A stretch of DNA of 64,000 bases from assembly GCA_963693365.1 (NCBI GenBank), contig CAVNZM010000003.1:12987252-13051251 (forward strand). The letters are read 5' to 3'. A program made the translations under genes and the position numbers. A model generated the notes under the pieces. It saw only the letters and a list, made by a program, of their open reading frames with translations, was not told the origin of the DNA and searched no databases. This DNA comes from Amoebidium appalachense. Taxonomy: Eukaryota > Protista > Ichthyosporea. Shown here piece by piece: positions 1,362-49,255 of the stretch (position 1 is its first letter; every line of letters starts with the position of its first letter).

Positions 1362-1467
1362 CCAATAAAACCTTTCCTCTATGGTAGAGAGGAAAGTAGT
1401 GATGTCATTTGACACATTATGGGCCAATTAGAAAGTACCTCTCTGGTAGAGGAACTTTTTTGATTGA
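1362..1467. repeat. Two CCAAT-initiated hairpin units (second is a 44-bp CCAAT..ATTGA palindrome)
   Basis: Stems ctttcctct/agaggaaag and aaagtacctct/agaggaacttt. Confidence 0.6.
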
Positions 1468-1653
1468 ATAGACGGCCTTTATTGCATGCCAAAAAAAGCC
1501 AATAACGTCCACAGAGGCTTTCTGGGTGCTAACGTCCTCATTGGCGCTTTTGTGCAGGGTGGCTTTTTGGATGTTGAATGGATTTCAATTTTCATTGGCA
1601 AACCCCGCTGAGTTGTGTGCATGCGGCAAAGGCCATATCATTACTCCCATTGG

Positions 1654-1742
1654 TCTCTCCCCCCCCCTCCCCCCCCCCCCTCCCCCCCCCCCCCCCCCCC
1701 CCCTCCCCTCCCACCCCTCTCTCCCTCTCCTCTCTCTCTCCC

Positions 1743-1797
<55 letters not shown>

Positions 1798-1818
1798 CCT
1801 CCCTCCCTCCCTCCCTCC

Positions 1819-1901
<83 letters not shown>

Positions 1902-1983
1902 CCTCCCTCCCTCCCTCCCTCCCTCCCCCTCTCTCTCTCTCTCTCTCTCCCTCCCTCCCTCCCTCCCTCCCTCCCTCCCTTTC

Positions 1984-2038
<55 letters not shown>

Positions 2039-2066
2039 GCCTCCCTCCCTCCCTCCCTCCCTCCCC

Positions 2067-2103
<37 letters not shown>

Positions 2104-2219
2104 CCTCCCTCTCTCTCTCTCTCTCTCTCTCCTCCCTCCCTCCCTCCCTCCCTCCCTCCCTCCCCCCCTCTCTCTCTCTCTCTCTCTCTCCCTCCCTCCC
2201 TCCCTCCCTCCCTCCCTCC

Positions 2220-2274
<55 letters not shown>

Positions 2275-2310
2275 CTCCCCCCCCCCACCTCTCTCTCTCT
2301 CCCTCTCCCC
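1654..2310. repeat. Polypyrimidine (CT)n/(CCCT)n/poly-C microsatellite
   Basis: Directly visible. Confidence 0.97.
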
Positions 2311-2473
2311 CATCTACACACATGCTGCACATGCCCAGAACCATGCTTTATTGTTTCCTTTTCAGTATTACACTTGCTCACAACAAATGGGAGCAAACTC
2401 TTGCTGCTTTCATTCACACTTGGTTTGGCCATCCCTTGTGCAACCTTGTGCAAAAAGTCTACTACGTGTACAG

Positions 2474-3673
2474 TCAGCAGCCACTCGTTGACTCTGCATG
2501 CTGCTGCTGTGGCGCCGGGGAGGCCCCTCCCACCACCAACTTCAGGCCATCCGCCAGCTCCTCCCTCCCCAGCCGGTGCATGTGCGCTATGCCATTCCAC
2601 TCTGTGTTGCTCTCATTGTCGTAGAACAGCCGAAACACGGCCATGCGCTCGTCGCCAAAGAAGACGTTGTCATACTTCCTGCATGCCTCCACTGCCGCTG
2701 CGAGTGACTTCAGGCGGTCACCAAAATTGGCCTTTACAAGCTGCCCGTCTATGCGGAAGGCGTGCGGGTTGAAACGTAGGAAGGCCACCGGCAGGCCATA
2801 TGCCAACGCCTGGTTGTACATGCGCGCCCACTCGCACGTGCTGGAGTAGTCTCTGTGCTGGTTCTCATCCACTTCCACTATGACCACGTGTGTCGCCATG
2901 TCGTAGTACAGGTCCGGCCGTGTTTTCTCCTGGCACTCGTTATGTACCTGCCTGTTGTGGCCGGCGGGAGGGCCAATGTGCACGGACAGGTGCTTGAGGA
3001 CTTTGATCTCGGGGCGGGCGTCGCTCCACCGCTTGCGTCTCGTGGACTCGGGGTCGCAGTGGCTGCACAGCCTATTTTTGCCACCTGTGAATGTCAACGT
3101 ACACCCAATGCAGAAATACCTTGTGTCGCAGAGTCTGCACTGCGGTTTTCGCTTGCCGTGCACGCAGATACGGCTGCCATTGCACTGGACACAAATCGAT
3201 TTGTTTTTGTTGTGACAGCAAATGCCTGTCCCGTGACAAGCCTTGCAGTAATATCGTATCACGTCGTGTGGGCATATAGAACTGCCCTTGCACGACTTGC
3301 ATCGTGCTTTTTGTATGTTGTGTGGGCACACCTGGCTACCTCCGCAAGCTCTACAAATGCTTTTTTGCCTGTTGTGTGGGCAGAGCCTTATTTTACCGCC
3401 GTTGCAGGCCCGGCGCTGTGCTTTTTGTTTTTTCGGAGCCTTGGAGCAGATACTGCTCCCCGTGCACCTCTTGCAATCGGCTTTTCGCCGGTTGTGCGAG
3501 CAGACTCCCGATCCATGGCAGTCGATGCAAGTTTCCTTTCGCCGTTTGTGTCTACACATCTCTGTCCCTAGGCAGTCGATGCATCGGCTTCGGCGCCGCT
3601 TGTGTTGGCATATGCCCTTCCCACCACACAAAACACATCTGTCTGGTCTGCTACGGCCATGAGGGCAGGCCAT
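2474..3673 (-). CDS. Cys/His zinc-repeat protein with C-terminal PD-(D/E)XK-like endonuclease
   Basis: About 9 CxHxxxKxxCxxCxGxxIC repeats followed by RPDLYYD..VIVEVDENQH and FLRFNP, an architecture common in NCLDVs. Confidence 0.8.
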   Translation of the reverse strand: MACPHGRSRPDRCVLCGGKGICQHKRRRSRCIDCLGTEMCRHKRRKETCIDCHGSGVCSHNRRKADCKRCTGSSICSKAPKKQKAQRRACNGGKIRLCPHNRQKSICRACGGSQVCPHNIQKARCKSCKGSSICPHDVIRYYCKACHGTGICCHNKNKSICVQCNGSRICVHGKRKPQCRLCDTRYFCIGCTLTFTGGKNRLCSHCDPESTRRKRWSDARPEIKVLKHLSVHIGPPAGHNRQVHNECQEKTRPDLYYDMATHVVIVEVDENQHRDYSSTCEWARMYNQALAYGLPVAFLRFNPHAFRIDGQLVKANFGDRLKSLAAAVEACRKYDNVFFGDERMAVFRLFYDNESNTEWNGIAHMHRLGREELADGLKLVVGGASPAPQQQHAESTSGC

Positions 3674-3753
3674 GACTACTTCCAGCAACCGTGCGGTCTA
3701 CACTCAGGCACAGAAAAAAAAAAGATATATAAGTTCGCCCCTTCAAAATAGGG

Positions 3754-4240
3754 AGATTGTACCTACTAGTACACACTCCCTCCCTCTGTGTGTCCCTTTT
3801 TGACAAGTTTACTGTAATCTACAAGTTGGACGAGGACAGACCCCGAATGGTGCTTTTTCAACCAATCAAAAGTGAGATTGCACCTACTAGTATACCCTCC
3901 CTCCCTCTGTGTGTCCCTTTTTGACAAGTTTACTATACTCTACAAGTTGGATGAGGACAGACCCCGAATGGTGCTCCCTCGTCCAATCAAAAGTGAGATT
4001 GCACCTACTAGAATACCCTCCCTCCCTCTGTGTGTCCCTTTTTGACAAGTTTACTATACTCTACAAGTTGGATGAGGACAGACCCCGAATGGTGCTCCCT
4101 CGTCCAATCAAAAGTGAGATTGCACCTACTAGTATACCCTCCTCCCTCTGTGTGTCCCTTTTTGACAAGTTCACTATATTCTACGAGTTGGATGAGGACA
4201 GACCCCGAATGGTGCTTTTTCAACCAATCAAAAGTGAGAT
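3754..4240. repeat. Tandem repeat, 4 x ~121 bp, between divergent genes
   Basis: Units start near 3754, 3874, 3995 and 4116; each has ccaatcaaaagtgaga. Confidence 0.95.
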
Positions 4241-4381
4241 ACACCCCTGTTTGCTTGAGGGTGCTCCCTCGTCCAATGACGTTTTTGCCTGCAAAGGCTG
4301 TATTTTTCCCTCCAGGCAGACACGCTGTAACTTTTTTCTAGCCGATAGTACCGAGGCTGTGTTTTTACACACGGCTTCTGC

Positions 4382-5980
4382 ATGCTAGGCGCACCAGTGC
4401 TCCGCAACAAATGGATGTGCGTCGCAGGCAGTGCAGATGGTGCAGATGGTGGCTCTGCCAAGAAGCCCCTTGTCACTGGTTATACTGAAACACAGATACA
4501 ATGCTTTGCAAACGCAGACACGCACACACCCCCACACAAATTCTTTATTGCAGAAGACTGCTGGAAAAAGGGCGTGGTAAAGAAACGATTCCGCTCGGCG
4601 GCAACCGTGGAGGACTTCATCTGCGCGCTGACTGACCTGTGCCGGCAAGGCGGCCGCCCCCACTGCTACGAGCTGTGCCGCACAGAGGCCGAGCTGAGCT
4701 TCTTCCTCGACATCGAGGGGGTACACGAGAGCCCGGATGGGCGTTCCGAGGTGGACAGTGCGCGCGATGCGGTGGTGGCATGTGTGCAGCAGTTGGCCAT
4801 ACACGAGCTTGGCATTCCTGCGTGGGCCTCCAGCACGGTGGTGGTCAGCCAGGGGCACCGGACCGTGGTCAAGGACGGCGACACCAAGTACAAGACGTCC
4901 TACCACGTCATTGTGCCGCACCTGAGGTTCGCGGACATGGACGCACTCCGCGCGTTCATACACGTACTCCATGCCGTTCTCCCAGACCCGCACAGGCAGT
5001 ATGTGGACTGGGGTGTCTACACAAACAATCGCATGCTACGCACCATCTTTTTGAGCAAGTTGGATGACCCGACACACACGCCGCTGTTGCCCGTGGACGC
5101 CACCCCTTATCCGTTGCCGCTGTACTTTGCGTCACGTGCGAGGGTGCCAGGGGACGTTGTGGTGCGCACACAGGCCATCCTTGACGCTGCCGTTCGCGTG
5201 GCACCGGAGGCAGATTTGGCGAGCAAGAAGCCCGGTGCCGCTGCCGCCCCCTCCAGGAAACGCAAGGCCAGCAGTGATGCTGACACCGACCATCATGATC
5301 CAACGCCGAGCAGGGGGGCACATGTGGCCGTCACGGTTGACAAAGTCGACGAGGAGGCCATCCTTGCAGCAGTTAACCTCCTTGTTGACAGTATTGACGA
5401 GCACCACAAGGGCATCGGGGTTGCAAGGGGGAACAAGCCAGGCCTGTACATTTCCAGGCGCAAGGGGCAGCGCATATGCCTCTTTGGACCCAGGCATGAC
5501 AGCAACGGCTTCTACATCACCATCGAAAAAGACGGCTCGGTAATCTACCGGTGCCATTCCCAGTCCTGTCACGGCAAGCAGCAGTGTATTGGGGTGGTTG
5601 CATGCGGAGAGGCCCACACACTCTTCCAGTTTGCCGAGCCCACGGTGCAGCAGGTCGCGGCGATGCAGGTGCTGCTGCTGCAGGAGAACGTCGTGGACAG
5701 CACGCTGTTGCGCTTCTGTGGGGCACAGACTCGGGAGGGGGCGTTGGCCCTGGGGTATGCCATGCGCAGCTCCATCACCCCGCTGCTCAGCGGAGCAGAC
5801 AAGCAGATGGTGTGGCTCGCGTGGCTGCAGACGCACACCGACCCGGAGCAGTATGGCGCAGAGGGTGCGCGTGTGTGGGGGCAGCGGCAGTGGGCATTGA
5901 TGAACACCTCGAGCGGCGGCGGGGTGAAGGGCTACTCCTATGCCACGGTCGCGTGGGTTGCGCACAAGACCGCCCCGTAA
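4382..5980 (+). CDS. AEP primase (PrimPol/UL52-like) with Zn finger and PriCT-like tail; N-terminal half of a split fusion
   Basis: Motifs FFLDIE, SYHVI, DWGVYTNNRMLR and C..HDSN..YRCHSQSC. Confidence 0.85.
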   Translation: MLGAPVLRNKWMCVAGSADGADGGSAKKPLVTGYTETQIQCFANADTHTPPHKFFIAEDCWKKGVVKKRFRSAATVEDFICALTDLCRQGGRPHCYELCRTEAELSFFLDIEGVHESPDGRSEVDSARDAVVACVQQLAIHELGIPAWASSTVVVSQGHRTVVKDGDTKYKTSYHVIVPHLRFADMDALRAFIHVLHAVLPDPHRQYVDWGVYTNNRMLRTIFLSKLDDPTHTPLLPVDATPYPLPLYFASRARVPGDVVVRTQAILDAAVRVAPEADLASKKPGAAAAPSRKRKASSDADTDHHDPTPSRGAHVAVTVDKVDEEAILAAVNLLVDSIDEHHKGIGVARGNKPGLYISRRKGQRICLFGPRHDSNGFYITIEKDGSVIYRCHSQSCHGKQQCIGVVACGEAHTLFQFAEPTVQQVAAMQVLLLQENVVDSTLLRFCGAQTREGALALGYAMRSSITPLLSGADKQMVWLAWLQTHTDPEQYGAEGARVWGQRQWALMNTSSGGGVKGYSYATVAWVAHKTAP

Positions 5981-10508: not shown

Positions 10509-10869
10509 GTACACATAAACCGATATTTGAAATGAAAATTTGAATTTTGGTCGATCAGGGTCTGCAGGGTTCGAATCTGTGATATTTATTCAATCAAAAG
10601 CATTGAATTACGCCCGTATTCGATTTTGATTGGGTTTTCGTGATTTTGATCTCGGATAGGCAGGAACGAAATTCCAATTGAAAGACCGGCCTTTCGTGTG
10701 ATTGTTTTTGGGATTTTGATTTGATCCTTTTTTGATCGGTGGAGTTTGTGATTCAAATGCAAATCAAAAATTGTTGGTATAAAAATCAAATTTGCCGTTC
10801 AACAGCTTATGGTCGATAATTTTGATGTCACTATTGTATAAGTGTGAAGGTCTCAATTATTTTTTTGTA

Positions 10870-11657: not shown

Positions 11658-11810
11658 AGGTGCACAATCATTGTCGACTGATACCGTTTAGCATGACATC
11701 TATACATAACAATAAACAACCCTATAGAACCCTACAGAGCGTCTAGAGCCATGCTTCGATGTCCGCCAGCATTAGGCCGGTACAGGCAAAGGCTGGGGGG
11801 TACCCAGCCG
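11658..11810 (-). ncRNA. Predicted omega-RNA of copy 2 (guide tcgacaatgattgtgcacct)
   Basis: Same scaffold as copy 1, different flank. Confidence 0.65.
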
Positions 11811-13163
11811 CTGGGAGCAAGAACGTAGAAGGATGTTTCTTGCCCCGTTGATGTCGCGGTCACAGACTGTGCCACAAGCAGCACAGTTGTACACCTTGCT
11901 CCCTCCCAGGTTTGTCTTGATGGCGCCACAATGCCCACACGTCTTGCTTGTGTATTGCTCGCCCACAAACACGACGGTCTTGCCCTTTTCCTCGGCCTTG
12001 TACACAAGGCGTTCCCGGAACTTGCCGTGTGCCCAGCCGGCCATGGCTCTGACGGCCTTGCTTGAGAGCTTTCTTGTGGACTTCATGGTCATCCGTGTGG
12101 TGTCCACCCATGGAAGCACAATCACGTCATATGCATCTGTCAGCCAGCCTGCTGTCTTCCAGTGGGCGTCCATTTGAAGGTTTTGCACGCGGCGGCGCAT
12201 GCGCACAAGTGCCCGCTTCATCCTGCGACGCCGCTTGTGCCCCACTTCTTTGCTGGCAGCCCTGGCTTGCAACGTGTCCATGTGCTTGAGTAGACGGCAA
12301 ATACGGCCTATGTCGCCTCTGCACACATGGACTGCAGTACTGGAGGCAGGGTCGTACACTGTCTGGAAGGTGCGCACACCGGGATCGAGTGAGCATACCC
12401 GTGGAGGAGCTTGGTCGCCAGCAGCACCACGAGGGGCTTGGTTGTCGCCCCTGGGCTTGCTGGTGGTGACTCATAGATACACTCTGCCATCCTGTGTCAA
12501 AACCATGCGACAGTCACCTGTAACTTCAGTCATTGTCAACGGCTCTGCCGCCTTAAGCCGGCCTCCATCCGGACACCTGCGTGGGGTAAACACTACACAC
12601 CCATCGGCTACCTTGAGGAGTGCACGAGGAGCAAGGATCGACTGGTTGCCCCACTTCTTGCTGCGAAAGCGCACCACTATTGGTCGTCCGGGTGCTCTGC
12701 CGGCCGCATATCTGCGCTTTGCTCGCTGTGATTTAACTGCCCACAGGAACTGGTCTACGGCATCCTGGCGTACAAGGCTGGGCACTTCTGTCTTGTACTC
12801 CTCTGTGTGTGGGATGGTGGTGTTGTTGATAAATCGCTTTCGAAACACCGTTCTGTTAGTCTCGCCGGTCTCGGCAAACAACCCCACACACTGATTGAAT
12901 ATTTTGCGAACGACACCAAACGTCTTTCGCAGCCACAACATCTGCGCTTTGGTGGGGTGTAGACGTATGGACCGGCACCGTGTCAGCCCCTCTGCATTGG
13001 CTTTGAGAGATGCCACATCCACCCCCATAGCCTCATAATCCTCCAGCGTCGAAGGCCGTGTCTCCCTGGCCTTCATCTTCTTGGTCACCCGCTTGCTGGC
13101 GGTCGTCTTCAGGCGCTTTGTGTGGTTTGCGGCGTCTCTTTTGGCCAGTTTGGTGCTTTCCAT
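11772..13163 (-). pseudogene. Fanzor2 with nonsense mutation CGA>TGA at 12471-12473 (start codon inferred, MESTKLAKR)
   Basis: RSIRLHPT..LRKTFGVVRKIFN N-terminal motif; copy 1 reads VYLRVT where this copy reads VYL*VT. Confidence 0.88.
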
Positions 13164-13755
13164 ACTTGCGACGTCCGTGATGTTTACAGATGAAATGGGT
13201 GGTGACAGCAATGAGGTCTTCCGCGAGCTCTTCATGGTCGGGGCCGTCACTACCACAGAGAACCACGACCTTGACGCCATATCGCTCAAGGAGCCACCAG
13301 AGAAGGTCGCCGGCGAGTCTGCAGAGTCGGTCTTTGTAGGTAACCACAACCTCTGCGACAGCTCCCTCGCTTGCTCGTTCCAAAAGGGACAACAGGCCTC
13401 GCCTCTTAAAGTTGACACCACTCCCGACATCCGAGATGACCTCGTGACTGGGATACCGTGCACGGATAAAGTCAATCTGTCGCTGGAGGTCCCCTTTCTG
13501 CTTTGCAGAGGAGACCCGTGCATAGGCAATGTGGGCTCTTCGTCTGGGTGTGGTCTCTTCACTCCCCGATAGCTTTGCCACGTCATTCCAGAGGTACAGA
13601 CGGGTGTTTGCCGGGGTCCGAACGGAGCCAATCCTCCTGGTGTCTGCCCACCGTCTGAGAGTGGCAGTGGTGACACCAAGCCGCTCCCTGACGACGCCGG
13701 CTGGGACATACTTTGCGTCCTCGGGTGTGCCCGGGGAGTACCTGTGTCCGCCCAT
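13033..13755 (-). CDS. tnpA: IS607-family serine recombinase TnpA (MerR-like HTH plus SR domain)
   Basis: LGVTTATLRRW, IAYARVSSAKQKGDLQRQ, DVGSGVNFKRRGL, VVVTYKDRLCR, ELAEDL. Confidence 0.95.
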   Translation of the reverse strand: MGGHRYSPGTPEDAKYVPAGVVRERLGVTTATLRRWADTRRIGSVRTPANTRLYLWNDVAKLSGSEETTPRRRAHIAYARVSSAKQKGDLQRQIDFIRARYPSHEVISDVGSGVNFKRRGLLSLLERASEGAVAEVVVTYKDRLCRLAGDLLWWLLERYGVKVVVLCGSDGPDHEELAEDLIAVTTHFICKHHGRRKYGKHQTGQKRRRKPHKAPEDDRQQAGDQEDEGQGDTAFDAGGL

Positions 13756-14141
13756 AGCTGCATCAACCAGCGACTCTTTACATATGCCCCGATTATTTTT
13801 CTGACAACATCCAAAAGTTGCAAAATTGGCCAGTTTCGCTCCGTAGATATGGCCATGTTTATTGTAGTTTGTGTGTGGCTGGCCATGTCAAACCGGTGAC
13901 ATGGACTGCATTTTGTCATGTATGTGGTCGTTGAAAGCTTTTTACACAAATGCACAATTGCAGTGTCCACTGAGAATATATTGTCATTGTTGGTTAGAAA
14001 TGTTATAAATGCCATAAGCTGTGCGCCGGCTGTCGCCGGCGCCAAAACATAACGAGACAGTTATTGATGTTGGGTTGTGTGGTTGTTACCTCCCAGGCCT
14101 CCCCCCCTCCCCCCCCCCCCCCCTCCCCCCCCCCCCCCAGC

Positions 14142-28205: not shown

Positions 28206-28231
28206 AACACACAAACACGTACACACATCCA

Positions 28232-28410
28232 TGGGCTTCTTGTTGGCATTGGTGGTGTCAATGACGTCATCAATGGTCAATGGACCAATGGGAGGAATGT
28301 TGCCACCCCCCCCCCCCCCCCCCCCCGCCCCGAGCATAAGCTTTTGCACATTCAACTGGCCAATGGGAGGAATCCTGTCATTTGCAAGGATTCTTCTGTC
28401 TGGCTTTTGT
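28232..28410 (-). pseudogene. KilA-N gene fragment containing the hairpin-encoded variable segment
   Basis: PDRRILANDRIPPIGQL..IPPIGPLTIDDVIDTTNANKK, homologous to 32625-32780. Confidence 0.75.
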
Positions 28411-29485: not shown

Positions 29486-30047
29486 CTAAACATTGCGCTC
29501 TTTGGAGACCAGAAGCCAGTGTTGCCAATTGAAGTTTGACTCACACTGGGGCCTGGTGGCCTTCTTGGCCCGGGCCTTCTTGGACCGCGTGCGGCGCCCA
29601 GCCATGCCAGGCACCAGTTCCAACTCGTCACCCAGCTCGAGAGGGGAGACCCCGGGAAATTCCCTCTCAAACAGCATCTTGGTGCGGTAGAAGTTGGCGT
29701 ACTTCTTGGCTTCGGGCATGTTCTCCGCAAACCAGCCCTCGGTGTTGCGCATGATGGTTTAGGCCTCCTCGGCCGAAATCTCCGTGCAGTAACGCACCTT
29801 GTGCCCCCACCAGGCGGCCCGCAGCTTGATAGCGGCTGCCAGTGTGGCCCTGGCCGTGACGCTGTTGACGCGGTCCTCGGTGAGGTGGCCCAGCACGTTG
29901 ACGTTGAGCACACTCGAAATAAACTGCTGCAGCAGGGTTGTGGGGCCCACAGTGCTGCCCTTGAACAGGGCAGAGACAATGCTGTAGGCCAGGTTGAGCA
30001 GACGCACGCGCAGGTGGGGAAACCCGTCAAGGGTGCCCTCCTCGGAT
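29486..30047 (-). pseudogene. C-terminal domain paralog of the 51088-53623 gene; in-frame TAA at 29759-29761, 5' end replaced by a palindrome array
   Basis: TLDGFPHLR.RL.NL..SIV.ALF.G..VRYCTEI shared; Tyr codon of the paralog is a stop here. Confidence 0.85.
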
Positions 30048-30378
30048 CCAATCAAAAGCTGGTGACCCGCGAGTAACCAGCTTCTGATTGGCCGGCGGAT
30101 CTGTATGCAGTGGTACGATCCAATCAAAAGCTGGTGACCCGCGAGTAACCAGCTTCTGATTGGCCAGCGGATCTATATGTAGTGGTACGATCCAATCAAA
30201 GCTGGTGACCCGCGAGTAACCAGCTTCTGATTGGCCAGCGGATATATGTGTAGTGGCACAATCCAATCAAAAGCTGGTGATCCGGGAGTAACCAGCTTCT
30301 GATTGGCCAGCGGATATATGTGTAGTGGGACAATCCAATCAAAGGCTGGTGACCCGGGAGTAACCAGCTTCCGATTAG
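30048..30378. repeat. Tandem array, 5 x ~72 bp, each with a 44-bp CCAAT..ATTGG palindrome
   Basis: ccaatcaaaagctggtgacccgcgagtaaccagcttctgattgg. Confidence 0.95.
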
Positions 30379-30557
30379 CCGTCACCAGCAACGCCCAATG
30401 GGAAACTGGGACTGTGGGTATATTCTGATTTTATGAGTCCAGTCTCAGAAATTCCTGATTGGTCTGCGAGGGGAACATGGCGACTCTCAGGACGTGTGTT
30501 GTATATTTGCCGTTTGGTGTTGCCGATGAACCTAACAACATATGTGCAAATACACAG

Positions 30558-30689: not shown

Positions 30690-30890
30690 CCAAGAGCAAA
30701 CCAGGCACTGACGAGGGACTAGTTTTTGATTGGCTAGTATGTTTAGCGCACCACTAGAAAACCAGTCACCGACGAGGGACTGGTTTTTGATTGTCTAGTA
30801 TGCTAAACGCACCAACAGAAAACCAGTCACCGGCGAGGGACCAGTTTTTGATTGGCCCCTATAATTAGCGCACCAATAGAAAACCAGTCA
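30690..30890. repeat. Tandem array, 3+ x 61 bp, each with a 44-bp CCAAT-like palindrome of a different stem
   Basis: Stem aaaaccagtc/gactggtttt; units at 30690, 30751 and 30812. Confidence 0.88.
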
Positions 30891-30894
30891 CAGT

Positions 30895-31406: not shown

Positions 31407-31752
31407 CAAACCAAGTCACGATATGTATCCAATCAATTAACTTCCGGCACCATGCCGGGACTTTTCATTTGCTCTTATGGCACCAAATGACGTGGTGCTA
31501 TGACATTATTGGGTGGAATCAAAAGTCCCGGCATGCCCCCCCCACCCATACTTTTGAATGACTTGGCCCTCTTGTATAGTAAGTTAGCATTCACCCTCTC
31601 CCCCTCCTCCCCCCCCTCCCTCCCCCTTCCCTGGTACATGATCTGGTTCCAACACACACACACACACGCACACACACACACACACACTCTAGATGTACAC
31701 CACATCAGAACGTTTCCCCTTGAAGTTCTACACACACACACACGTGTTTGGC

Positions 31753-33117
31753 CTACTCAAACCTAAACCGAGCACGCAGGTCCTGCACCCTAGACTCGAG
31801 TTGTGTGGAGCCAGCAGACGCCGTCATCTCGTTGAACCTGTTGAGCACCAGGTAGAACTGCCGCCACGTGAGGTGTGTGGAATTGCGCAGGGACCAGCGG
31901 ATCTTGCATGCGGCAAAGATGGCCGTGAGAAACGTAATTGAGCTCCTGCCACGTATCTTGAGGTCGAAGCACTGTGCCTCCTCGAGACCCATCAGCAAGC
32001 CGATGTGCAGCTGGATTTCGTTCACAGACATGTTCTTGAGCCACGGGGTGAGGATTTTGGCCATGTCGTCAAACGTGTGCTTGACCAGTGTGCGGCCATA
32101 CTCGGTGCCGGCACAGCTGTCGTCGGGCATGATGTAGGTGGGGAGGGCAAGGGCGCGCTGGGGGTAGGGCTCCTGGTAGAGGGTCTTTGCCATTTCCAGC
32201 ACACGGGTGGCCATGTCCTCGTACTTGGCAACCACCCCCACGATCTTGTTGGTGAGTGTCATGTTGTGCTGCATGAGCTCCATGTTCTGCTGGGTGAGCT
32301 CCGTGTTCTTGGCCACGACCTCTGCGACTGTGCGCTGCACCATGCTTGCCACCTGTTCGGCCATGTCGGTGTCCGTGTGCGCAGGGGCCTCCCTAGAAGC
32401 GCGCACCTGGTCCATGTCGATGGCCATCTTGCTGGTGGTGTGGCCCGTGTAGCCGTCACACAGGTCAATCACGTCCGCCACCACAGCATAGTCGCCGGTG
32501 AGCATGCGGGAGAGGAGGGTGTCGGTGTGCACGGCAAAATCCGTGGACACGTGGCGGGCCAGGGCGGGAAGCAGGGCAATGTGCACGAAGGTGCCGCGCA
32601 GAGCCATGTCGCCGGACTTCTTTTTGGCATGGGTGGTGTCAATGACGTCATCGATGCTCAGCTGGCCAATGGGAGGAATACTGCCCATGGGCAGTTTCCC
32701 TTGTGTGACGTCATTGGTGCTGTCTGAGCCAATGAAAGGAATGTGGATGTGGTTCCACATTCCTCTGATTGGTTGGTTGATCTTGGCCACTACTTTCTGT
32801 AGAAGCTCCGTGTTACTCTTGCTCCAGTATTGCACCTTTTTCTCGGTCCCATCCCCATGCTTCTCGGTGTTGTACTGGCGCCCGACGTTGCACAGCATGG
32901 TGGCGTTAAAGTAGACGTGCCCATTCTCGTAGGTGGTGGCGATGGTGAGCACGCGCTCCCCAAACCCCATCTCAGCGGGCGCACGGATCTCCTTGTAGGC
33001 AGGGTAGAGGGGGGTGGCCATGGCGGGCTCGGGGGTAGGGGCAGCAGGGGCAACGGAAGCGGCAGGGGCGGGCACCAACGAGGGCGCGGAGGGAGAGAGA
33101 GAGGGAGCAGTAGACAT
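31753..33117 (-). CDS. KilA-N domain DNA-binding protein, full length, with coiled-coil
   Basis: NGHVYFNATMLC, RGTFVHIALLPALARHVSTDFAV. Confidence 0.88.
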   Translation of the reverse strand: MSTAPSLSPSAPSLVPAPAASVAPAAPTPEPAMATPLYPAYKEIRAPAEMGFGERVLTIATTYENGHVYFNATMLCNVGRQYNTEKHGDGTEKKVQYWSKSNTELLQKVVAKINQPIRGMWNHIHIPFIGSDSTNDVTQGKLPMGSIPPIGQLSIDDVIDTTHAKKKSGDMALRGTFVHIALLPALARHVSTDFAVHTDTLLSRMLTGDYAVVADVIDLCDGYTGHTTSKMAIDMDQVRASREAPAHTDTDMAEQVASMVQRTVAEVVAKNTELTQQNMELMQHNMTLTNKIVGVVAKYEDMATRVLEMAKTLYQEPYPQRALALPTYIMPDDSCAGTEYGRTLVKHTFDDMAKILTPWLKNMSVNEIQLHIGLLMGLEEAQCFDLKIRGRSSITFLTAIFAACKIRWSLRNSTHLTWRQFYLVLNRFNEMTASAGSTQLESRVQDLRARFRFE

Positions 33118-33564
33118 CTTGGCGGTTGTGTTGGGCGGCTGGTCAGGCTCGAGCATTTGAGTTGTGATGTGCCTGTGTGTGGTGTACTTTTATATGCAGC
33201 GGCTGCCCGGATCACGCCCAGAGAGGCCCCAATCAAGCACAGGATTTGCACCACCTGCGGCCTTGGGGGCGCTGAGCAGTCAACAGCCAATCAGATTGCG
33301 GTTGTGGTTGGACCGTGACGACCTGTGGGACGCAACAGGTCCGTTTCATTGACCACCAGCTTGTCGCATATGGCTGTAATGAGCTCCTTGTGTGACGTCA
33401 TTGGTGCTCTCTGAGCCAATGAAAGGACAGTGCCCTGGGCACTTTCCTTGTGTGACGTCATACACTCAAAGCGCCTTTATTATGCTTGTCGTCGAGACCT
33501 GCTCGATAGGCAAATCTCTCAGACTGTACCTGTTATCGGGGCCCAGGCAATATTTGATGCCTAC

Positions 33565-33912
33565 TCACTCAAATGTTACCCTAATCCCCTTGGATTCGAG
33601 CCGGGCCCGAACATATGCATAATAATCTGGAGGTGCTTGTCCAAAAAGATGGATGCGTGGTGTTCTATCACGAAAGAAATCCCTGTACATCTGTATCTGG
33701 CCATATGCATGTTTCCAAGCTCTGACGCGCTTTACCTCGATGATTTCCGAGGTGGTCAGTACATCAAACCCCATCTCAGCGGGCGCACAGATCTCCTTGT
33801 AGGCAGGGTAGAGGGGGGCGTCCATGGCGGGCTGGGGGGCAGGAGCAGCAGGAGCTGCGGGGGCGGGCACCAACGAGGGTGTGGGGGAGGAGAGAAATGG
33901 GGCAGTAGACAT
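33565..33912 (-). CDS. Chimeric/deleted gene: KilA-N leader fused to a PD-(D/E)XK-like C-terminal domain
   Basis: Leader and upstream region duplicate 32970-33210; DVLTTSEIIEVKRVRAWKHAYGQIQMY. Confidence 0.65.
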   Translation of the reverse strand: MSTAPFLSSPTPSLVPAPAAPAAPAPQPAMDAPLYPAYKEICAPAEMGFDVLTTSEIIEVKRVRAWKHAYGQIQMYRDFFRDRTPRIHLFGQAPPDYYAYVRARLESKGIRVTFE

Positions 33913-34319
33913 CTTGGCGGTTGTGTTGGGCGGCTGGTCAGACTCGAGTATTTGAGTTGTGATGTGCCTGTGTGTGGTGTACTTTTATATGCAGCGGCTG
34001 CCCGGACCACGCTCGGTGAAGCCCGAGTCACGCACAGGAATTTGCACCACCTGCGGCCTGGTTCAGGCGGTATAGGGGGAGCGCCCAGGAGGGCGTTCGA
34101 CGGCTGGGTTGGGCTTTGTGATGGCATGCGGAATAGCTTTATTTGGCTAGCATTTTTAGCCTTAGATGGGTTGACTGTTGATTGCCAGCCAATCGCATTA
34201 AGGGAAGGGTGTATATCAGCTCTACGATGCCAAATAATGTTTTTTTTTTTTTGCAAGTTTTCCCGGGTACAGAAACTTTTTGTGTTTGTTGTATGTATAT
34301 AAGCCATACCAGGTCCAAG

Positions 34320-34736: not shown

Positions 34737-34769
34737 CATAAATTAATTTTTGGGGGTGGGAGGTAATCA

Positions 34770-35227
34770 TGACTGGTTCAATGCTTCTCTTGTTTGCGTT
34801 ACGGGTGTCAATGACGTCATCAATGGTCAAGGGAGATCCGGTTGCTTTTGCAACTTGATCTCCATAGACTTGCAGAGAGCCATTGGTAGTCAGGGGGGAT
34901 CCGGTAGCATTTGCTACTTGATCTCCATAGACTTGCAGAGGGCCATCGTTGATCTTGCCTAAAAGGGTCTCAATTAGCTTGGCATGTCGGTCTTTCCAAA
35001 CAACTACCATCTTCTCGGCTCTTTCACCCGTCTTGGTGCTGTTGTACTCGCGCCCCACACTGCACAACATGGTGGCATTGAAGTACACGTGTCCATTGGG
35101 GTAAGTGGTGGTTGACAGTCAGCACCTTCTCCCCAAAGTCCATGGCAGGCGAGGCACACATCTCCTTGAATGCCGGGTAGGCAGGGGTGCCCAGTGTAGG
35201 GCCTTGGATGGCAGGGGCTGCAGACAT
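34770..35227 (-). pseudogene. Truncated, frameshifted KilA-N paralog with two tandem hairpin segments
   Basis: YFNATMLC..KIN..LTIDDVIDT; frameshift near 35110; stems ggagatccggttgc/gcaacttgatctcc. Confidence 0.85.
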
Positions 35228-35499
35228 GACAGTGCTTGGTAGTGACAAATGTGTTTTGTAATAACCGTCGGTAACATTGGTAGCCAACTGAGGTTTGCTG
35301 TCTCAGAGCATGGCTTTATATAGCTTTCAGAGTGCCACTGTGTACACCACAGATTGGCCTACTACTGGTACTTGTGGTTTCTCGGGGCAGAAGTGGATTG
35401 GCTGATGACACGTCATTGATGACTGTGTGGCTCAGCAATTTTTGTGTGCTGGAATGTCTGTACGAGCGCACTACTGCTGCAGACAGAGACGGTGTGCCA

Positions 35500-36551: not shown

Positions 36552-36715
36552 GAGGCCGAGCAGAAGGTGGTTTGGTGGAAAGAGGCCAACCTTGCCCTGC
36601 TTGTCAAGGTGCTGGATAAAATTAACGAACCAATCAAAGGAAAGGTGGGAATTCCCACTATTCCTCCCATTGGCCAACTGAGCATCGATGACGTCATCGA
36701 CATCACCAACGCCAT
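36552..36715 (+). pseudogene. KilA-N gene fragment with 44-bp palindrome
   Basis: AEQKVVWWKEAN..KINEPIKGKVGIPTIPPIGQLSIDDVIDIT. Confidence 0.82.
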
Positions 36716-39540
36716 AGATTAGCATATAGAATATATACACTTCGTGCATATACACTCCTCTACTAGTTACGATAACTCATCCGTATGTGTATGAGTAGCT
36801 CACACGGGTCACATGGATACAAGGGGTCAACTTTGAAGGGCCATATCTCGGCTCCCAGTGGGCCGTTTTTCTTGAAAAAAAAAACCAGATATAGCTCACA
36901 TCGAGCTCTTTCAGAGCAAGTTGTTTACCTGCTTGCGGCATGCCGTCTACGCACGTACACAGCAGCGATCGGCCGCGCGCAGACCGGATTCACGCATATG
37001 CACAGCCTGAAACTGCTGAGCCACATTCCTGAGTGATCCGCCAACATTGACGTGCAAACTCGGTTCTTTCTGGTGGTGTGCAAAATGCTCCTGAGGTGAC
37101 AACTTCAATATGCAAAATGCTCCTGAGGTGACAACTTCATTATGTAAAATGCTCCTGAGGTGACAGGTCACATGTTCGTAACCAATCGGATGAGTTTACT
37201 TACATTGCAATACAAAACGAGTGTACGTGTTTGCTTGATATGTATAATATATTATTTACACACATGCTTATTATGCACCAATATATATATATATATATAT
37301 ATATATTTATTTGGCATTGCAAGTACCAATATGCCTAACATACACTCCATGCACATACACTCCTCTACTTTCGATAACTCATCCAATTGGTTACGAACAT
37401 GTGACCTGTCACCTCAGGAGCATTTTACATAATGAAGTTGTCACCTCAGGAGCATTTTGCATATTGAAGTTGTCACCTCAGGAGCATTTTGCACACCACC
37501 AGAAAGAACCGAGTTTGCACGTCAATGTTGGCCGATCACTCAGGAATGTGGCTCAGGAATGTGGCTCAGCAGCTTCAGGCTGTGCATATGCGCGAATAGT
37601 GTTGTATATAACAATGAATATAATATTGCGTATAATATTTTATATAGTATCGTACATTTATCGTACATAGTATAATATATAATAGCATATAGAATATATA
37701 CACGTCGTGCACATACACTCCTCTGTTTACAATAACTCATCCGTACGTGTAGGAGTAGCTCACACGGGTCACATGGATAAAAGGGGTCAACTTTGAAGGG
37801 CCATATCTCGGCTCCCAGTGGGCCGTTTTTCTTGAAAAAAAAAACCAGATATAGCTCACATCGAGCTCTTTCAGAGCAAGTTGTTAACATGCTTGCGGCA
37901 TGCCGTCTACGCACGTACACAGCAGCGATCGGCGGCGCGCAAACCGGATTCACGCATATGCACAGCCTGAACTGCTGAGCCACATTCCTGAGTGATCGGC
38001 CAACATTGACGTGCAAACTCGGTTCTTTCTGGTGGTGTGCAAAATGCTCCTGAGGTGACAACTTCATTATGTAAAATGCTCCTGAGGTGACAACTTCATT
38101 ATGTAAAATGCTCCTGAGGTGACAACTTCATTATGTAAAATGCTCCTGAGGTGACAGGTCACATGTTCGTAACCAATCGGATGAGTTATCGTAAATAGAG
38201 GAGTGTATATTAGGCATATTGGTACTTGCAATGCCAAATAAATATATATATATATATATATTGGTGCATAATAAGCATGTGTGTAAATAATATATTATAC
38301 ATATCAAGCAAACACGTACACTCGTTTTGTATTGCAATGTAAGTAAACTCATCCGATTGGTTACGAACATGTGACCTGTCACCTCAGGAGCATTTTACAT
38401 AATGAAGTTGTCACCTCAGGAGCATTTTACATATTGAAGTTGTCACCTCAGGAGCATTTTGCACACCACCAGAAAGAACCGAGTTTGCACGTCAATGTTG
38501 GCCGATCACTCAGGAATGTGGCTCAGCAGTTTCAGGCTGTGCATATTGTGAATCCGGCTATCGTAAATAGAGGAGTGTATGTGCACGACGTGTATATATT
38601 CTATATGCTATTATATATAATACTATGTACGATAAATGTACGATACTATATAAAATATTATACGCAATATTATATTCATTATCATATACAACAATATTCG
38701 CGCATATGCACAGCCTGAAACTGCTGAGCCACATTCCTGAGTGATCGGCCAACATTGACGTGCAAACTCGGTTCTTTCTGGTGGTGTGCAAAATGCTCCT
38801 GAGGTGACAACTTCATTATGTAAAATGCTCCTGAGGTGACAACTTCATTATGTAAAATGCTCCTGAGGTGACAGGTCACATGTTCGTAACCAATCGGATG
38901 AGTTATCGTAAATAGAGGAGTGTATATTAGGCATATTGGTACTTGCAATGCCAAATAAATATATATATATATATATTGGTGCATAATAAGCATGTGTGTA
39001 AATAATATATTATACATATCAAGCAAACACGTACACTCGTTTTGTATTGCAATGTAAGTAAACTCATCCGATTGGTTACGAACATGTGACCTGTCACCTC
39101 AGGAGCATTTTACATAATGAAGTTGTCACCTCAGGAGCATTTTACATATTGAAGTTGTCACCTCAGGAGCATTTTGCACACCACCAGAAAGAACCGAGTT
39201 TGCACGTCAATGTTGGCCGATCACTCAGGAATGTGGCTCAGCAGTTCAGGCAGTGCATGTGCGTGAATCCGGTCTGCGCGCCGCCGATCGCTGCTGTGTA
39301 CGGCGTAGACAGCATGCCGCAGGCAAATAAAGAACGTGTTCTGAAAGAGCTCGATGTGAGCTATATCTGGTTTTTTTTCCCAAGAAAAACGGCCCACTGG
39401 GAGCCGAGATATGGCCCTTCAAAGTTGACCCCTTTTATCCATGTGACCCGTGTGAGCTACTCATACACATACGGATGAGTTATCGTAACTAGTAGAGGAG
39501 TGTATGTGCACGAAGTGTATATATTCTATATGCTAATCTA
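36716..39540. repeat. 2.8-kb non-coding foldback structure of nested direct and inverted modules with ~480-bp terminal inverted repeats
   Basis: 36720-37200 is the reverse complement of 39060-39537; internal modules repeated in both orientations; 30-bp aaaatgctcctgaggtgacaacttca subrepeats. Confidence 0.92.
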
Positions 39541-42849: not shown

Positions 42850-43080
42850 CTGATACCGTTTAGCATGACATCTATACATAACAATAGACAACCCTATAGA
42901 GCCCTACAGAGAGTCTCGAGCCATGCTTCGATGTCCGCCAGCATTAGGCCGGTACAGGCAAAGGCTGGGGGAACCCAGCCGCTGGGAGCAAGAACGTGGA
43001 AGGATGTTTCTTGCCCCGTTGATGTCGCGGTCACAGACTGTGCCACAAGCAGCACAGTTGTACAGCTTGCTCCCTCCCAG
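42850..43080 (-). mobile_element. Right-end-only Fanzor remnant retaining the omega-RNA scaffold (guide ggtcacaaaaccggcagtct)
   Basis: Homologous to 11678-11909 with several substitutions. Confidence 0.92.
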
Positions 43081-43654: not shown

Positions 43655-43688
<34 letters not shown>

Positions 43689-43779: not shown

Positions 43780-43812
<33 letters not shown>

Positions 43813-44008: not shown

Positions 44009-44047
<39 letters not shown>

Positions 44048-44135
44048 CTGCACGAGTACACCAGCCACTCATACCCAAATTCGCCAAAGCCCCCCCCCCC
44101 CCCCCCCCCCCCCCCCCACCCCCCAAAAAAAACAT
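43081..44135. repeat. Array of 9 x 44-bp ggctgcacgagtacaccagccaccca(t/c)ac(c/g)caaattcgccaaag units with Cn-An-(CA)n spacers
   Basis: Directly visible. Confidence 0.93.
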
Positions 44136-45238: not shown

Positions 45239-47546
45239 ATGGACGGCTTTGCAATCTACGAGCGCCTGGGCATTGACAACGCCCGGGAGTGTGGCTTCCC
45301 CGCCATCTCACCGGAGCTTGAGACCCTGCTGGGCACTCTGCGGGACGACGTGGTGATTGATGTGCTGAGCTGCCTCGACCCCCTGCTGGGCGACAGCGAC
45401 AAGACTGTCTCTGGGCGCGACGTCTACAGGGTGCTGGGTTATGGCAACTACAACGAGTTTGCCAGAGCCATGTTCAAAGGCCGAGACGGCAACCCTGGCT
45501 GTGTTCCAGTGGGGGACTACACTGCGGTGCGACTTGAGGTGAGCGGTCCTATGTTAATAGCCACGGTTGCAAGAAGGTCTAGGTTGGTCTTTGGTGGCTG
45601 GAGGTACCGTAACAATAGTTCTTGGTTGATTCGCTCAAAGTCACACTCCCCAGGTTCAACTGAGACACGGACACCGCACCTCATTAGACAGCAGGGGCTT
45701 GTTGGTTAGCAATCTCAGCCCCACGGGCTGAGAAGTATGGTTACTAATAATAGTGTGACGTAATAGTGACGTCATAGTGGTAGGTTAGCTTCTCAGCCCC
45801 GCAGGCTGAGAAGTATGGTTACTAATAATAGTGTGACGTAATAGTGACATCGTAGTGGTAGGTTAGCTTCTCAGCTCCACGGGCTGAAAAGTATGGTTAG
45901 TAGTGTGACGTAATAGTGACATCGTAGTGGTAGGTTAGCTTCTCAGCCCCGCAGGCTGAAAAGCATGGTTACTAATAATAGTGTGACGTAATAGTGACAT
46001 CGTAGTGATAGGTTAGCTTCTCAGCTCCACGGGCTGAAAAGTATGGTTAGTAGTGTGACGTAATAGTGACATCGTAGTGGTAGGTTAGCTTCTCAGCCCC
46101 GCAGGCTGAAAAGCATGGTTACTAATAATAGAGTGACGTAATAGTGACATCATAGTGGTAGGTTAGCTTCTCAGCCCCGCAGGCTGAGAAGTATGGTTAG
46201 TAGTGTGACGTAATAGTGACATCGTAGTGGTAGGTTAGCTTCTCAGCTCCACGGGCTGAAAAGTATGGTTAGTAGTGTGACGTAATAGTGACATCGTAGT
46301 GGTAGGTTAGCTTCTCAGCCCCGCAGGCTGAAAAGCATGGTTACTAATAATAGAGTGACGTAATAATGACATCATAGTGGTAGGTTAGCTTCTCAGCCCC
46401 GCAGGCTGAGAAGTATGGTTAGTAGTGTGACGTAATAGGTTTCCAGTCCGCCAACAGCCAAGCGGTAAAGATTGTTTGGAAGTGTAGTGGTGTATCCTTC
46501 TCTTATGTAATTGCTAACAAATTGTGTTTCCACAGAGCACTGGTGGTCGTCCTGGCATTGACCACCTGCTGACCCCCAAGGGCTTCCGGCTGGCTACGTC
46601 TGCAACCCTGGGCCCGCTTGGCTACCTGGTGCGTGTGTGGGCCTTCAACGTGGCCGAGGCCTTTGCCCGCCTGGCCGCCAGCAACAAGGAGGGGGCCATC
46701 ATCGCCCTGCGTGAGACCCTCGCCGCTGCCGAGGCCCGAGCCGCCGCCGCCGCGACCGAGGCCCGTGCTGCCGCCCTTGAGCGCGACCTTGCCCTCGAGG
46801 GCAAAGAGGCTGCCCTGGAGGCCCGCGACGCCGCGACATCCCTGCTGATGGAGGCGGCGGCCCGTGCCAACAGGGAGCTGCGCAAGTGGGGCAGTGACAT
46901 GCCCAGCATGGCGAGCGGCAACTTTGCCAACAACAAGGCCTTCAAGCGGATCACCCGCTCGTTTGCGTACGGGGCGACCGATGCCATCTACGCGCTGGAT
47001 GAGCACAACGCCAACACCTACACCGACATGATTATGGCCGTCACCGGCGTGTGTGTGCTGTTTCCCACCGCTGAGGTGTCCAACATTGTGGCCACGACCG
47101 GCCTGCAGCGCGCCATGAAGGAGCGCATCCGCATCTGGACCGGGATGGAGCCCGCCTACTCGACCGACATGACCACCAACCAGCTGTACACGTTCATCCT
47201 CAACTACGTGGACTGGTTTGTGAAGCACTACAACGAGCGCTCGCTGCAGTCCATGCTGGACGGCGGCATTGCCATGCCCGCTGCAAAGGACGTGCCCGTG
47301 GAGATGGCGGTGTGGCTGGACGCCATCCATGACAAGTTCCCCGACATCTGCCCCCTGGAGCTCGGCAAGACCGTCAGCCTGGACGCCCCGCTGGCCGACC
47401 GTGGGGAGCAGCTGTCCGGCCAGACCATTCTTGACCTGTACGTGCGTAAAGGCAGGCTGGGGCGCAAGCGCAAGGTTGCATCTCTAGAGCATACGCCCAA
47501 GGGCGCGGATGTGATTGTTATTGAGGTGGACAGTGAGAACGAGTAG
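45239..47546 (+). CDS. AntA/MSV199-like antirepressor protein, 2 exons (45239-45538, 46536-47546)
   Basis: Phase-0 intron gtgagc..gctaac..cacag joins VSGRDVYRVLGY..GDYTAVRLE to STGGRPGIDHLLTPKGF. Confidence 0.85.
45704..46437. repeat. Intronic tandem array, 10 x 72/78 bp hairpin units
   Basis: Stem cttctcagcc/ggctgagaag plus tgacgt motifs. Confidence 0.95.
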
Positions 47547-47829
47547 GGTGGGTAGCTAGTGGGCGTGTGGGTTAGTATTGTTTGCCTCGGGTACTGGCAC
47601 TTATGTAATCCAACTATGGTACCGTAGTCTGGCCTTGCAATGAAGGTGTTGGCGCCCTGGAGGCACAACGCTGTGAACTAAATAGACCCCGTTTTTGCGC
47701 CCAAACCTGACCACGCAATCCCAAATTGCAATGAGTCTGATGTGTATGCTGATATGCCGAATCTCGTTGATGACGATGAGGACAGCCACTCTGGTGACCA
47801 GGTTGTGCCCAACCAAGATGGGTGCGCAT

Positions 47830-47834
47830 GCCCC

Positions 47835-47882
<48 letters not shown>

Positions 47883-47934
47883 AAACACAAAACTAAATTC
47901 GCCAAGTTCATACACCCGTCCACCTGTGAATGCT

Positions 47935-47965
<31 letters not shown>

Positions 47966-48159
47966 AAAAAAACAAAAAACAAAATAAAACACACACACAC
48001 GGCTGCACGAGTACACCAGCCACCCACACGCAAATTCGCCAAAGCCTCCCCCCCTCCCCCCCCCCCCCAAAAAAAAAAACAAAAACAAAAAAACACACAC
48101 ACACACACACACACACGGCAGCACGAGTACACCAGCCACCCATACCCAAATTCGCCAAA

Positions 48160-48199
<40 letters not shown>

Positions 48200-48700
48200 A
48201 CCAAAAAAAAAACAAAAACACACACACACACACACACGGCTGCACGAGTACACCAGCCACCCATACCCAAATTCGCCAAAGCCCCCCCCCAAAAAAAAAA
48301 CAAAAAAAAAACAAAAAAAACACACACACACGGCTGCACGAGTACACCAGCCACCCACACGCAAATTCGCCAAAGCCTTCCCCCCCCCCCCCTCCTCCCC
48401 CCCCCCCCCTCCCCCCAAAAAAACCCAAAAAAAAACAGAAAAAAACACACACATGGCTGCACGAGTACACCAGCCACCCACACGCAAATTCGCCAAAGCC
48501 TCCCCCCCTCCCCCCCCCCCAAAAAAAAAAAAAAAAAAAAAGAAAAACACACACACACACACGCACACACACACACACACGGCTGCACGAGTACACCAGC
48601 CACCCATACCCAAATTTGCCAAAGTCCCCCCCCCCCCAAAAAAAAAACCAAAAAAAAAACCAAAAAAAAACCAAAAAAAACACACACACACGGCTGCATC
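47830..48700. repeat. Second array of the 44-bp ggctgcacgag unit (6 full copies)
   Basis: Same unit as 43081-44135. Confidence 0.93.
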
Positions 48701-48754
48701 CGGCTCAATGGAAACAGCCACTCTGTGTTCCCACAATGACTGCATGACAAACGC

Positions 48755-49050
48755 CGAGAGCTGACACGTGTCATTATGACGTCACAGCTTCAAGAGCTGA
48801 AATGCGTCATTATGGTGTCACAGCTCGTAGAGGTGACATTGATTGTAGCAGCAGCATTGTGATATTACAGCCCGCAGAGCTGACACGCGTCATTATGATG
48901 TCACAGCTCTGAGAGCTGACACGCGTCATTATGACGTCACAGAGGTGACATTGATTGTAGCAGCAGCATTGTGATATTACAGCCCGCAGAGCTGACACGC
49001 GTCATTATGACGTCACAGCTCTGAGAGCTGACACGCGTCATTATGACGTG
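48755..49050. repeat. Tandem agagctgacacgcgtcattatgacgtcacag repeats
   Basis: About 6 copies with palindromic tgacacgcgtca and tgacgtca. Confidence 0.85.
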
Positions 49051-49142
49051 TCCAACAAGCAACACAGAAGACGGGTGCTAAAAATAGAACGAACACCATA
49101 ATACCGTCACAGCTTCGGCAAGACCGTCAGCCTGGACGCCCC

Positions 49143-49255
49143 ATCTATGACGTCATCGATGCGCAGCCGACCAATGGGAGGAGACTTGGCAAATGCCAAC
49201 TCTCCTCTGATTGGCTGTTGATTGATCTTACCCAACACCTTCTCCAAAACGTTGG
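49143..49255 (-). pseudogene. KilA-N gene fragment with 44-bp palindrome
   Basis: VLEKVLGKINQQPIRGELAFAKSPPIGRLRIDDVID. Confidence 0.8.

Follow-up and report, generated by a model that had tools for sequence, protein, structure and literature searches.

The 64,000-nucleotide stretch of Amoebidium appalachense DNA considered here (GenBank assembly GCA_963693365.1, contig CAVNZM010000003.1, positions 12,987,252 to 13,051,251; the whole stretch is called the window) contains a set of 44-bp palindromes, several of which lie within sequence encoding KilA-N DNA-binding domains. A sequence-only reading had described them as units with CCAAT..ATTGG ends whose stems vary freely while remaining self-complementary, and the question is what keeps their length and pairing constant while their sequence changes. 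Our data indicate that, in relatives of these genes, the inner bases of the palindrome change together with residues of the predicted DNA-reading helix encoded beside it. The 44-bp units are probably the long-armed giant-virus form of this KilA-N palindrome, and a candidate operator of the encoded protein.

Every unit that had been listed was present in the window at its given position. Exact CCAAT-N34-ATTGG units were found at 30048, 30120, 30263, 32729, 36630 and 49171; the unit at 30192 is 43 bp rather than 44 bp in length, and those at 1424, 28360, 30335, 30690, 30751 and 30812 have variant ends. When two arrays were collapsed, four exact units remained against 0.083 expected, an enrichment of the N34 spacing, although three of the four are paralogous KilA-N copies that are not independent. 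No other spacer between 0 and 200 nucleotides exceeded two occurrences in the collapsed window, and 200 block shuffles produced at most one exact unit. The claim that the stems pair held for 11 of the 12 units tested, in which 9 to 14 of 17 inner positions pair in register (about 4.3 under the null, p<=0.013), and failed for the unit at 1424, where 5 of 17 positions pair (p=0.47) and the stem forms only if a bulge is allowed.

A palindrome scan added three in-frame 44-bp units that had escaped the earlier list, at 32666 (CCAAT..GTGAC) and at 34826 and 34889 (GTCAA or GTCAG..TAGAC). As these units carry other ends, CCAAT..ATTGG was rejected as the defining feature; the ends vary while the 44-bp length and the symmetry persist. 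Arm pairing in the window units drops sharply beyond 22 bp per arm. A gapless alignment of nine units has 1 invariant column out of 44, with changes on both sides at 17 of 20 pairs, and the observed pairing and covariation were reached by none of 500 shuffles, although kinship among the rows inflates this test. The true register of the alignment is 79% paired, compared with 30–49% in slid registers. Seven units lie in KilA-N sequence, each between a helix ending in KIN and an IDDVID motif, and all seven occupy one position of one gene family; the remainder are non-coding. The four in-frame peptides reported earlier were correct. All four of those units are in frame, but only the one at 32729 belongs to an intact gene, and those at 28360, 36630 and 49171 sit in KilA-N fragments.

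Palindromes at the same place were found in homologous genes. The homologous loop of phage P1 kilA (L002) contains a 32-bp palindrome, the sole strong one in that gene. A set of 80 bacterial KilA-N loci, reduced by 7 without an anchor and 5 duplicates, gave 68 distinct loops; 43 of them reached a palindrome score of at least 8, a level attained by 4 of 68 stretches from other parts of the domain, and synonymous recoding was exceeded by 40 (p<0.05). The bacterial core is fixed at 22 bp: positions 1–11 are paired in 40–54 of 55 sites, and position 12 in 15 of 55 (14 expected). The center was even in 57 of 57 sites, with two reading frames in use. Across families, where the loci are mostly an even sample of one bacterial class and three KilA-N loci come from a P1-seeded genome, a strong palindrome was found inside 18 of 20 KilA-N domains (23 of 140 flanking windows), 20 of 29 Bro-N domains (29 of 226) and 5 of 11 Rha-like domains (8 of 132). 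The Bro-N sample comprised 29 of 30 loci fetched, among the 55 matches listed, with one unpublished genome excluded. The palindromes fall into length classes of about 25–31 bp in Bro-N (L292-L321), 26–34 bp in Rha-like (L281-L291) and 32–34 bp in a second KilA-N subfamily (L322-L338). Viral scans seeded with P1 yielded nothing beyond near-identical P1-like loci.

For eukaryotic viruses, 154 IMG/VR matches less 58 duplicates, 2 short sequences and 27 without the wing motif left 67 KilA-N loops, of which 29 have at least 9 of 11 pairs, compared with 4 of 66 control stretches. Several of these arms extend to 18–19 bp, and the 22-bp arms of the window are the longest seen. Among poxvirus-like N1R/p28-type paralogues, five (L351, L357, L367, L368 and L415) have near-perfect palindromes of up to 38 bp, which have been lost from further paralogues encoded on those contigs. 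A fixed-length dyad at one fixed codon position is thus present in bacteria, phage P1, eukaryotic viruses and the window.

The folding energy of the window units, -4 to -15 kcal/mol with DNA parameters, would suit an mRNA hairpin under selection as a pause, processing or polyadenylation signal. Sense-strand G-U is, however, rarer than A-C (5 versus 12 in the window, 9 versus 23 in bacteria), and the central A|T, whose two bases would stay unpaired in any hairpin, keeps its symmetry in 52 of the 60 sites from bacteria. Because of these two observations a double-stranded dyad is favored, and the hairpin is hardly credible. Two further proposals, which come in part from the sequence-only reading, concerned DNA change at the site itself. 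A hairpin-driven diversification hotspot was rejected for P1-like phages, in which 35 distinct sequences (of 80) showed no excess change in the palindrome. A recombination or diversification site that drives shuffling of the KilA-N domain, in the manner of attC, REP or Rickettsia palindromic elements (RPE), would fit the heavy rearrangement of the window copies, the tandem duplication of units within two genes, and the five-unit array at 30045..30380, which abuts a broken C-terminal domain copy of the KilA-N gene family (similar to 53093-53413). Such a site would not predict the covariation with the helix described below, and the symmetry of the unpairable central pair also speaks against it. 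Insertion at unrelated positions was not seen, the position in the domain being fixed across phages and viruses. The 38 open reading frames (ORFs) scanned include no evident integron-type or other matching site-specific recombinase and no RAYT, the sole resolvase being that of an IS607-like element. We regard this explanation as very improbable.

The evidence that ties the palindrome to the protein is strongest in bacteria. After 14 duplicates were removed, and 6 of 66 sites with fewer than 8 of 11 pairs were dropped, 60 bacterial sites were compared. In the predicted DNA-reading helix, the residue that immediately precedes the conserved Trp (W-1) predicts arm bases 6–8. This link persisted when cores were permuted only among sites alike in frame and spacing (0 of 5000). 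When the sites were collapsed to 31 rows, one per background and residue, bases 6–8 were still linked (0 of 20000), while the outer bases 1–3, which are nearer to the helix codons, were unlinked (p 0.35–0.92). At base 7, Gln at W-1 goes with G in 42 of 42 half-sites, Tyr with C in 18 of 18, Asn with T in 6 of 6, Glu with G in 6 of 6, and Lys with C in 20 of 24. Two pairs of sister loci (L116/L133 and L128/L132) share 88–92% of the upstream flank and 80–81% of the middle segment (43/54 and 44/54 nucleotides), compared with 52–59% of the helix codons and 0–1 of 5 core bases per arm; with flanks and middle kept, helix and core switch together. Of the same-background pairs with flank identity of at least 70%, 32 share both W-1 and core, 60 differ in both, and 4 are discordant.

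The table derived from bacteria was then applied to 26 eukaryotic-virus sites, where it predicted base 7 from W-1 (p=0.001), which had been the top bacterial cell before this test, and bases 9 and 10 from W+2 (p=0.002 and 0.001). Asn at W-1 goes with T in 14 of 14 eukaryotic-virus half-sites, as in the bacterial ones; Arg at W+2 goes with C and then A in both sets, and His resembles Tyr. This covariation in both groups supports the suggestion that the element is an operator lying inside the gene for the protein that binds it. That the palindrome of the bacterial KilA-N family is a self-encoded operator is, from these comparisons, highly probable. The ideas of selection on DNA structure and of a hairpin hotspot account for the data less well than an operator does.

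Copies of the window's own family were also seen in public sequencing runs. The gene region was present in 11 of 24 runs listed, from three studies, and 4 of the 24, which may include DNA from the window's own source, were examined for contigs. Contigs matching KilA-N pieces had a summed depth tens to hundreds of times that of neighboring sequence, depth here not being a copy number; the 30048 array had no raised depth in the same runs. The high depth of the pieces at 32254-33186 in the four runs suggests a large multi-copy family in the same DNA. One high-depth contig connects 30036 to the KilA-N region, and loose contig ends fall at 32677-32679. The contigs contain additional cores flanked by identical arms (17 letters at one joint and 12 at another), each core with its common arms totaling 44 bp when counted by hand. 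One pair of cores differs by a mirrored double change, GGTGGG..CCCACC versus GTTGGG..CCCAAC, by which two codons are altered. When the contigs were read by eye, a GTGGGAA-type core was linked to an EAN-type helix end and a TGTCA-type core to an RHA-type end; these links match the window copies and demonstrate linkage only.

Mirrored double changes between close copies are also what a neutral, self-repairing palindrome would produce, if template switching copied one arm to the other in a tolerant loop that no protein reads. The loop is disordered in the structural model, mismatches are free of RNA-strand bias, broken genes hold five of the window's seven gene-coded units, and the fit of helix to base in the window itself is poor, all of which would suit neutrality. 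What it fails to explain is covariation with a helix encoded 50–90 bp away that bypasses the codons between, the fact that part of the code carries over to eukaryotic viruses, and lengths that are fixed by subfamily with a sharp edge; the absence of excess change at the site in P1-like phages does not favor it either. On balance, neutrality is quite unlikely.

Within the window, the central 22 bp of each unit were taken as the family site, and three copies retain the helix. Their W+2 residues fit roughly, with Glu at GG, Asp at G and Lys at C, the last in one of two units. The outer CCAAT arms are constant among copies whose helices differ, and the loop peptides of homologues suggest CCAATCA letters in other reading frames; the window lineage may read its site differently or may have added boxes for host factors. 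These features bear on another explanation, in which the units, chiefly the non-coding arrays, are an enhancer or origin read by some other viral protein or by host CCAAT- or CRE-binding factors, with the site uncoupled from the helix in this lineage. Baculovirus hr elements, whose 64-bp repeats contain 24-bp palindromes, serve both as enhancers and as origins (PMC4535591) and are bound by the dimeric viral IE-1 protein (PMC4535591, PMC6669502). The window resembles them in having tandem imperfect palindromes at several loci (30045-30380, 30690-30891 and 1286-1545), with array periods of 61–72 bp close to the 60–70 bp of hr repeats. It also encodes an origin-binding-protein-like helicase, and TGACGTCA is enriched, with 14 occurrences against 0.76 expected. 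The hr palindromes differ in being 24–30 bp long, near-identical per genome and outside the gene of their binder; the cores of the window differ among copies, with the single invariant column noted above. Furthermore, the gene-coded units hold the family-wide position with a family-like center, and the arrays, unlike the KilA-N pieces, lack high depth in the runs. An hr-like role is unlikely.

Several observations weigh against a self-encoded operator. Tree-based independent pairs gave ratios of 5:0, 4:0 and 3:0, none with p<0.05, on a poorly resolved flank tree. At one bacterial locus, L130, helix and core are mismatched. The rules for Gln, Leu and Ile do not hold among the eukaryotic viruses, where 56 cells were tested with a best p of about 0.06 after Bonferroni correction, on rows that include paralogues, and 37 of 63 eukaryotic-virus domains, many of them poxvirus-like, have no site. 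In the intact gene of the window, W-1 is Tyr but base 7 of both units is G, where the rule calls for C, and the majority of the window's copies are broken genes. A second cognate site was looked for and not found in the 400-bp flanks of the bacterial sites or, allowing up to 3 mismatches, elsewhere in the whole P1 record, so that a promoter operator lacks support. Finally, in the fungal protein PCG2 it is the wing rather than helix B that makes most base contacts (PMC4333399). Separately, L130 is likely a recombinant, with a helix and a palindrome core of different types.

If the palindrome is the operator of the protein that it helps to encode, a dimer would read its two half-sites, and a change in a helix residue would require a matching change in both arms, for which reason the stems would vary yet stay symmetric. 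Template switching could supply such paired mutations. With the site 50–90 bp from the helix codons, lock and key would pass on as one piece even where genomes are mosaic. Such an operator would probably serve negative autoregulation, or would let the protein sense genome copy number through titration, for which BstA and aba (below) offer a comparison. The non-coding copies might be extra docking sites or decayed relics amplified by slippage, and the CCAAT or GTCA ends, together with the adjacent TGACGTCA, may add sites for host factors. A broader proposal is put forward tentatively, and somewhat more doubtfully than not: KilA-N proteins from P1 to poxviruses and giant viruses would encode a predicted operator beside their helix codons under a partly shared residue-to-base code, and the present lineage would have extended the site twofold, to 44 bp, evolved different lock-and-key pairs in its many paralogues and planted non-coding arrays for docking or titration.

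Helix-turn-helix repressors and their operators are known to diverge in specificity as pairs, and lac O2 is an operator inside a coding sequence. The KilA-N palindrome is comparable in its fixed-length dyad, the symmetric change of its half-sites and its covariation with a predicted recognition helix. It differs in that the only site found here sits in the binding domain's own codons, beside the helix codons, and recurs from phages to eukaryotic viruses. A closer parallel in one respect is BstA, a KilA-N-like protein whose cognate DNA element, aba, overlaps its own gene; variant BstA proteins are paired with variant aba, which acts as DNA in a manner dependent on copy number (PMC8585504). Both systems combine a KilA-N-type protein with a cognate element, in the present case a putative one, within its own gene. 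The aba element is nevertheless 63 bp long, lies at the gene start and has terminal direct repeats, and the term 'palindrom' does not occur in the text of that paper (PMC8585504). The window element is an inverted repeat deep in the domain codons with no sign of a role in defense, and it is not a direct-repeat element over a start codon. The third comparison is with the fungal APSES proteins Mbp1 and PCG2, whose fold the predicted structure of the window protein appears to share. Helix B of PCG2 lies in the DNA major groove (PMC4333399), Mbp1 and PCG2 read a short ACGCGT core mainly via the wing (PMC4333399, PMC4862756), and the recognition sequence of viral KilA-N domains is described as little known (PMC4862756). 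In the mainly open-access literature, covered at the level of listings and abstracts, no palindromes were described in KilA-N, Bro-N or Rha codons. Operator-regulator pairs as such are known; the KilA-N and eukaryotic-virus cases, the code across domains of life and the 44-bp form appear to be new.

The assignment of the window protein to this family rests on several searches. The intact gene product matches Pfam PF04383 (E 1.3e-6, 28.6 bits, curated cut-off 23.8), and its top atlas matches are KilA-N. The best PDB matches of its predicted structure are Mbp1 (Z 5.8, root-mean-square deviation 3.1, 90 residues aligned) and Bqt4. The model has a predicted local distance difference test score (pLDDT) of 60.6 overall and below 50 in the loop; in it, the units encode a disordered loop that follows the helix, and the putative DNA-reading helix is helical. 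Foldseek against the PDB gave no match for the model at E<=0.001, and a PDB sequence search gave only a weak, misregistered match to Mbp1; the correspondence to APSES helix B therefore relies on fold and position and does not extend to single residues of the helix. The named top rows of a BFVD structure search were KilA-N/p28 proteins, none at E<=0.001. All 32 rows of an alignment that combines bacterial, viral and window domains have the Trp, and the Trp and wing Gly of the window line up with family-invariant columns; by analogy with PCG2 helix B, the helix would contact the DNA major groove. The closest named homologues are all encoded on a single 183-kb contig from an assembly of Daphnia sinensis. 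A HMMER library search with the KilA-N protein gave five matches, the spurious P0004 among them. The viral contigs, metagenomes and phage records searched contained no DNA relatives of either the gene or the motif, word-indexed protein searches gave zero matches, and PHROGs assigned no family for 10 proteins.

Table 1. Palindromic units and associated features of the window; an empty cell means that no value was recorded.
Feature	Position	Strand	Remark
Intact KilA-N family gene, 467 aa	31753..33156	-	two palindromic units in variable loop
Predicted DNA-reading helix codons, KKVQYWSKSNT	32809..32841	-	around family-invariant Trp
44-bp unit 1 of intact gene, PIRGMWNHIHIPFIG	32729..32772	-	in frame
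44-bp unit 2 of intact gene, CCAAT..GTGAC	32666..32709	-	12/17 inner pairs, p=0.00015
Shorter second palindrome, TGACGTCA core	32638..32655	-	encodes IDDVID; from motif list
Tandem 44-bp units 34826 and 34889, GTC-type ends	34826..34932	-	inside broken KilA-N copy
Broken KilA-N copy bearing 34826 and 34889	~34740-35230		frameshifted near 35.1 kb
44-bp unit	36630..36673	+	within KilA-N fragment ~36558-36720
44-bp unit	49171..49214	-	within KilA-N fragment
44-bp unit	28360..28403	-	within decayed KilA-N fragment ~28221-28403
Five-unit array, 72-bp period	30045..30380		one unit 43 bp
Array of three units and partial fourth, 61-bp period	30690..30891		non-coding
41-bp variant unit	33416..33456		~260 bp upstream of intact gene, in copied loop-region piece
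Degenerate cluster including bulged 1424 unit	1286..1545		non-coding
Extra 44-bp unit, same outer arms	10590..10633		non-coding, weak inner stem
Degenerate 43-bp unit	31429..31471		non-coding

Five KilA-N copies retain the part immediately downstream of the unit, and each has a TGACGTCA-cored palindrome there; a TGACGTCA-rich repeat array at 48757-49049 follows immediately after the KilA-N fragment at 49171. Four 121-bp repeats at 3753-4240 each contain a lone CCAATCAAAAG arm. The segment at 33385-34059 is a duplicate of the KilA-N gene promoter and leader without the KilA-N core; as read by eye, the leader is joined to the apparent second domain of P0002.

The genes of the window include PCNA, VLTF3, a YqaJ nuclease, the helicase mentioned above, an AEP domain, DUF5767 and an IS607-like resolvase/TnpB pair, and they are surrounded by microsatellites and poly-C runs. 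From this gene content, the window is probably a giant-virus (Nucleocytoviricota-like) region in a eukaryotic assembly. The setting is comparable to that of the giant endogenous viral elements of Amoebidium, which are long blocks of giant-virus genes (VLTF3 and others) found as many divergent insertions within the eukaryotic genome (PMC11244446); the terms 'palindrom', 'inverted repeat', 'APSES' and 'KilA' are absent from the main text of that paper. The IS607-like element, which encodes a serine resolvase and a TnpB/Fanzor-type nuclease, has copies at 1-1137 and 11677-14045 that are 99.8% identical, and a 232-bp end fragment at 42850-43080. The 1424 unit was considered as part of this element and rejected, as the element ends at 1137. 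Two genes that look by eye like DNA-binding-domain genes, at 45539-46535 and 51585-52362, are apparently split by GT..AG introns, and both putative introns contain tandem arrays, one of 72–78-bp units with an imperfect palindrome and TGACGT and the other of 53-bp units. At 37079-39175, one 32-bp repeat occurs in six short arrays of alternating orientation amid AT-rich sequence and larger duplicated blocks, and this region is possibly an origin or terminal structure.

KilA-N is among the most widespread viral DNA-binding domains, and it is the ancestor of the fungal APSES cell-cycle factors. If its members do encode their own operators, the DNA target of any one of them would be readable from the sequence that codes for it, and a recognition code open to testing would follow from hundreds of naturally occurring pairs of protein and site. 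A self-encoded operator would also explain the hypervariable loop of KilA-N genes, and how the specificity of a regulator is kept in genomes that recombine heavily.

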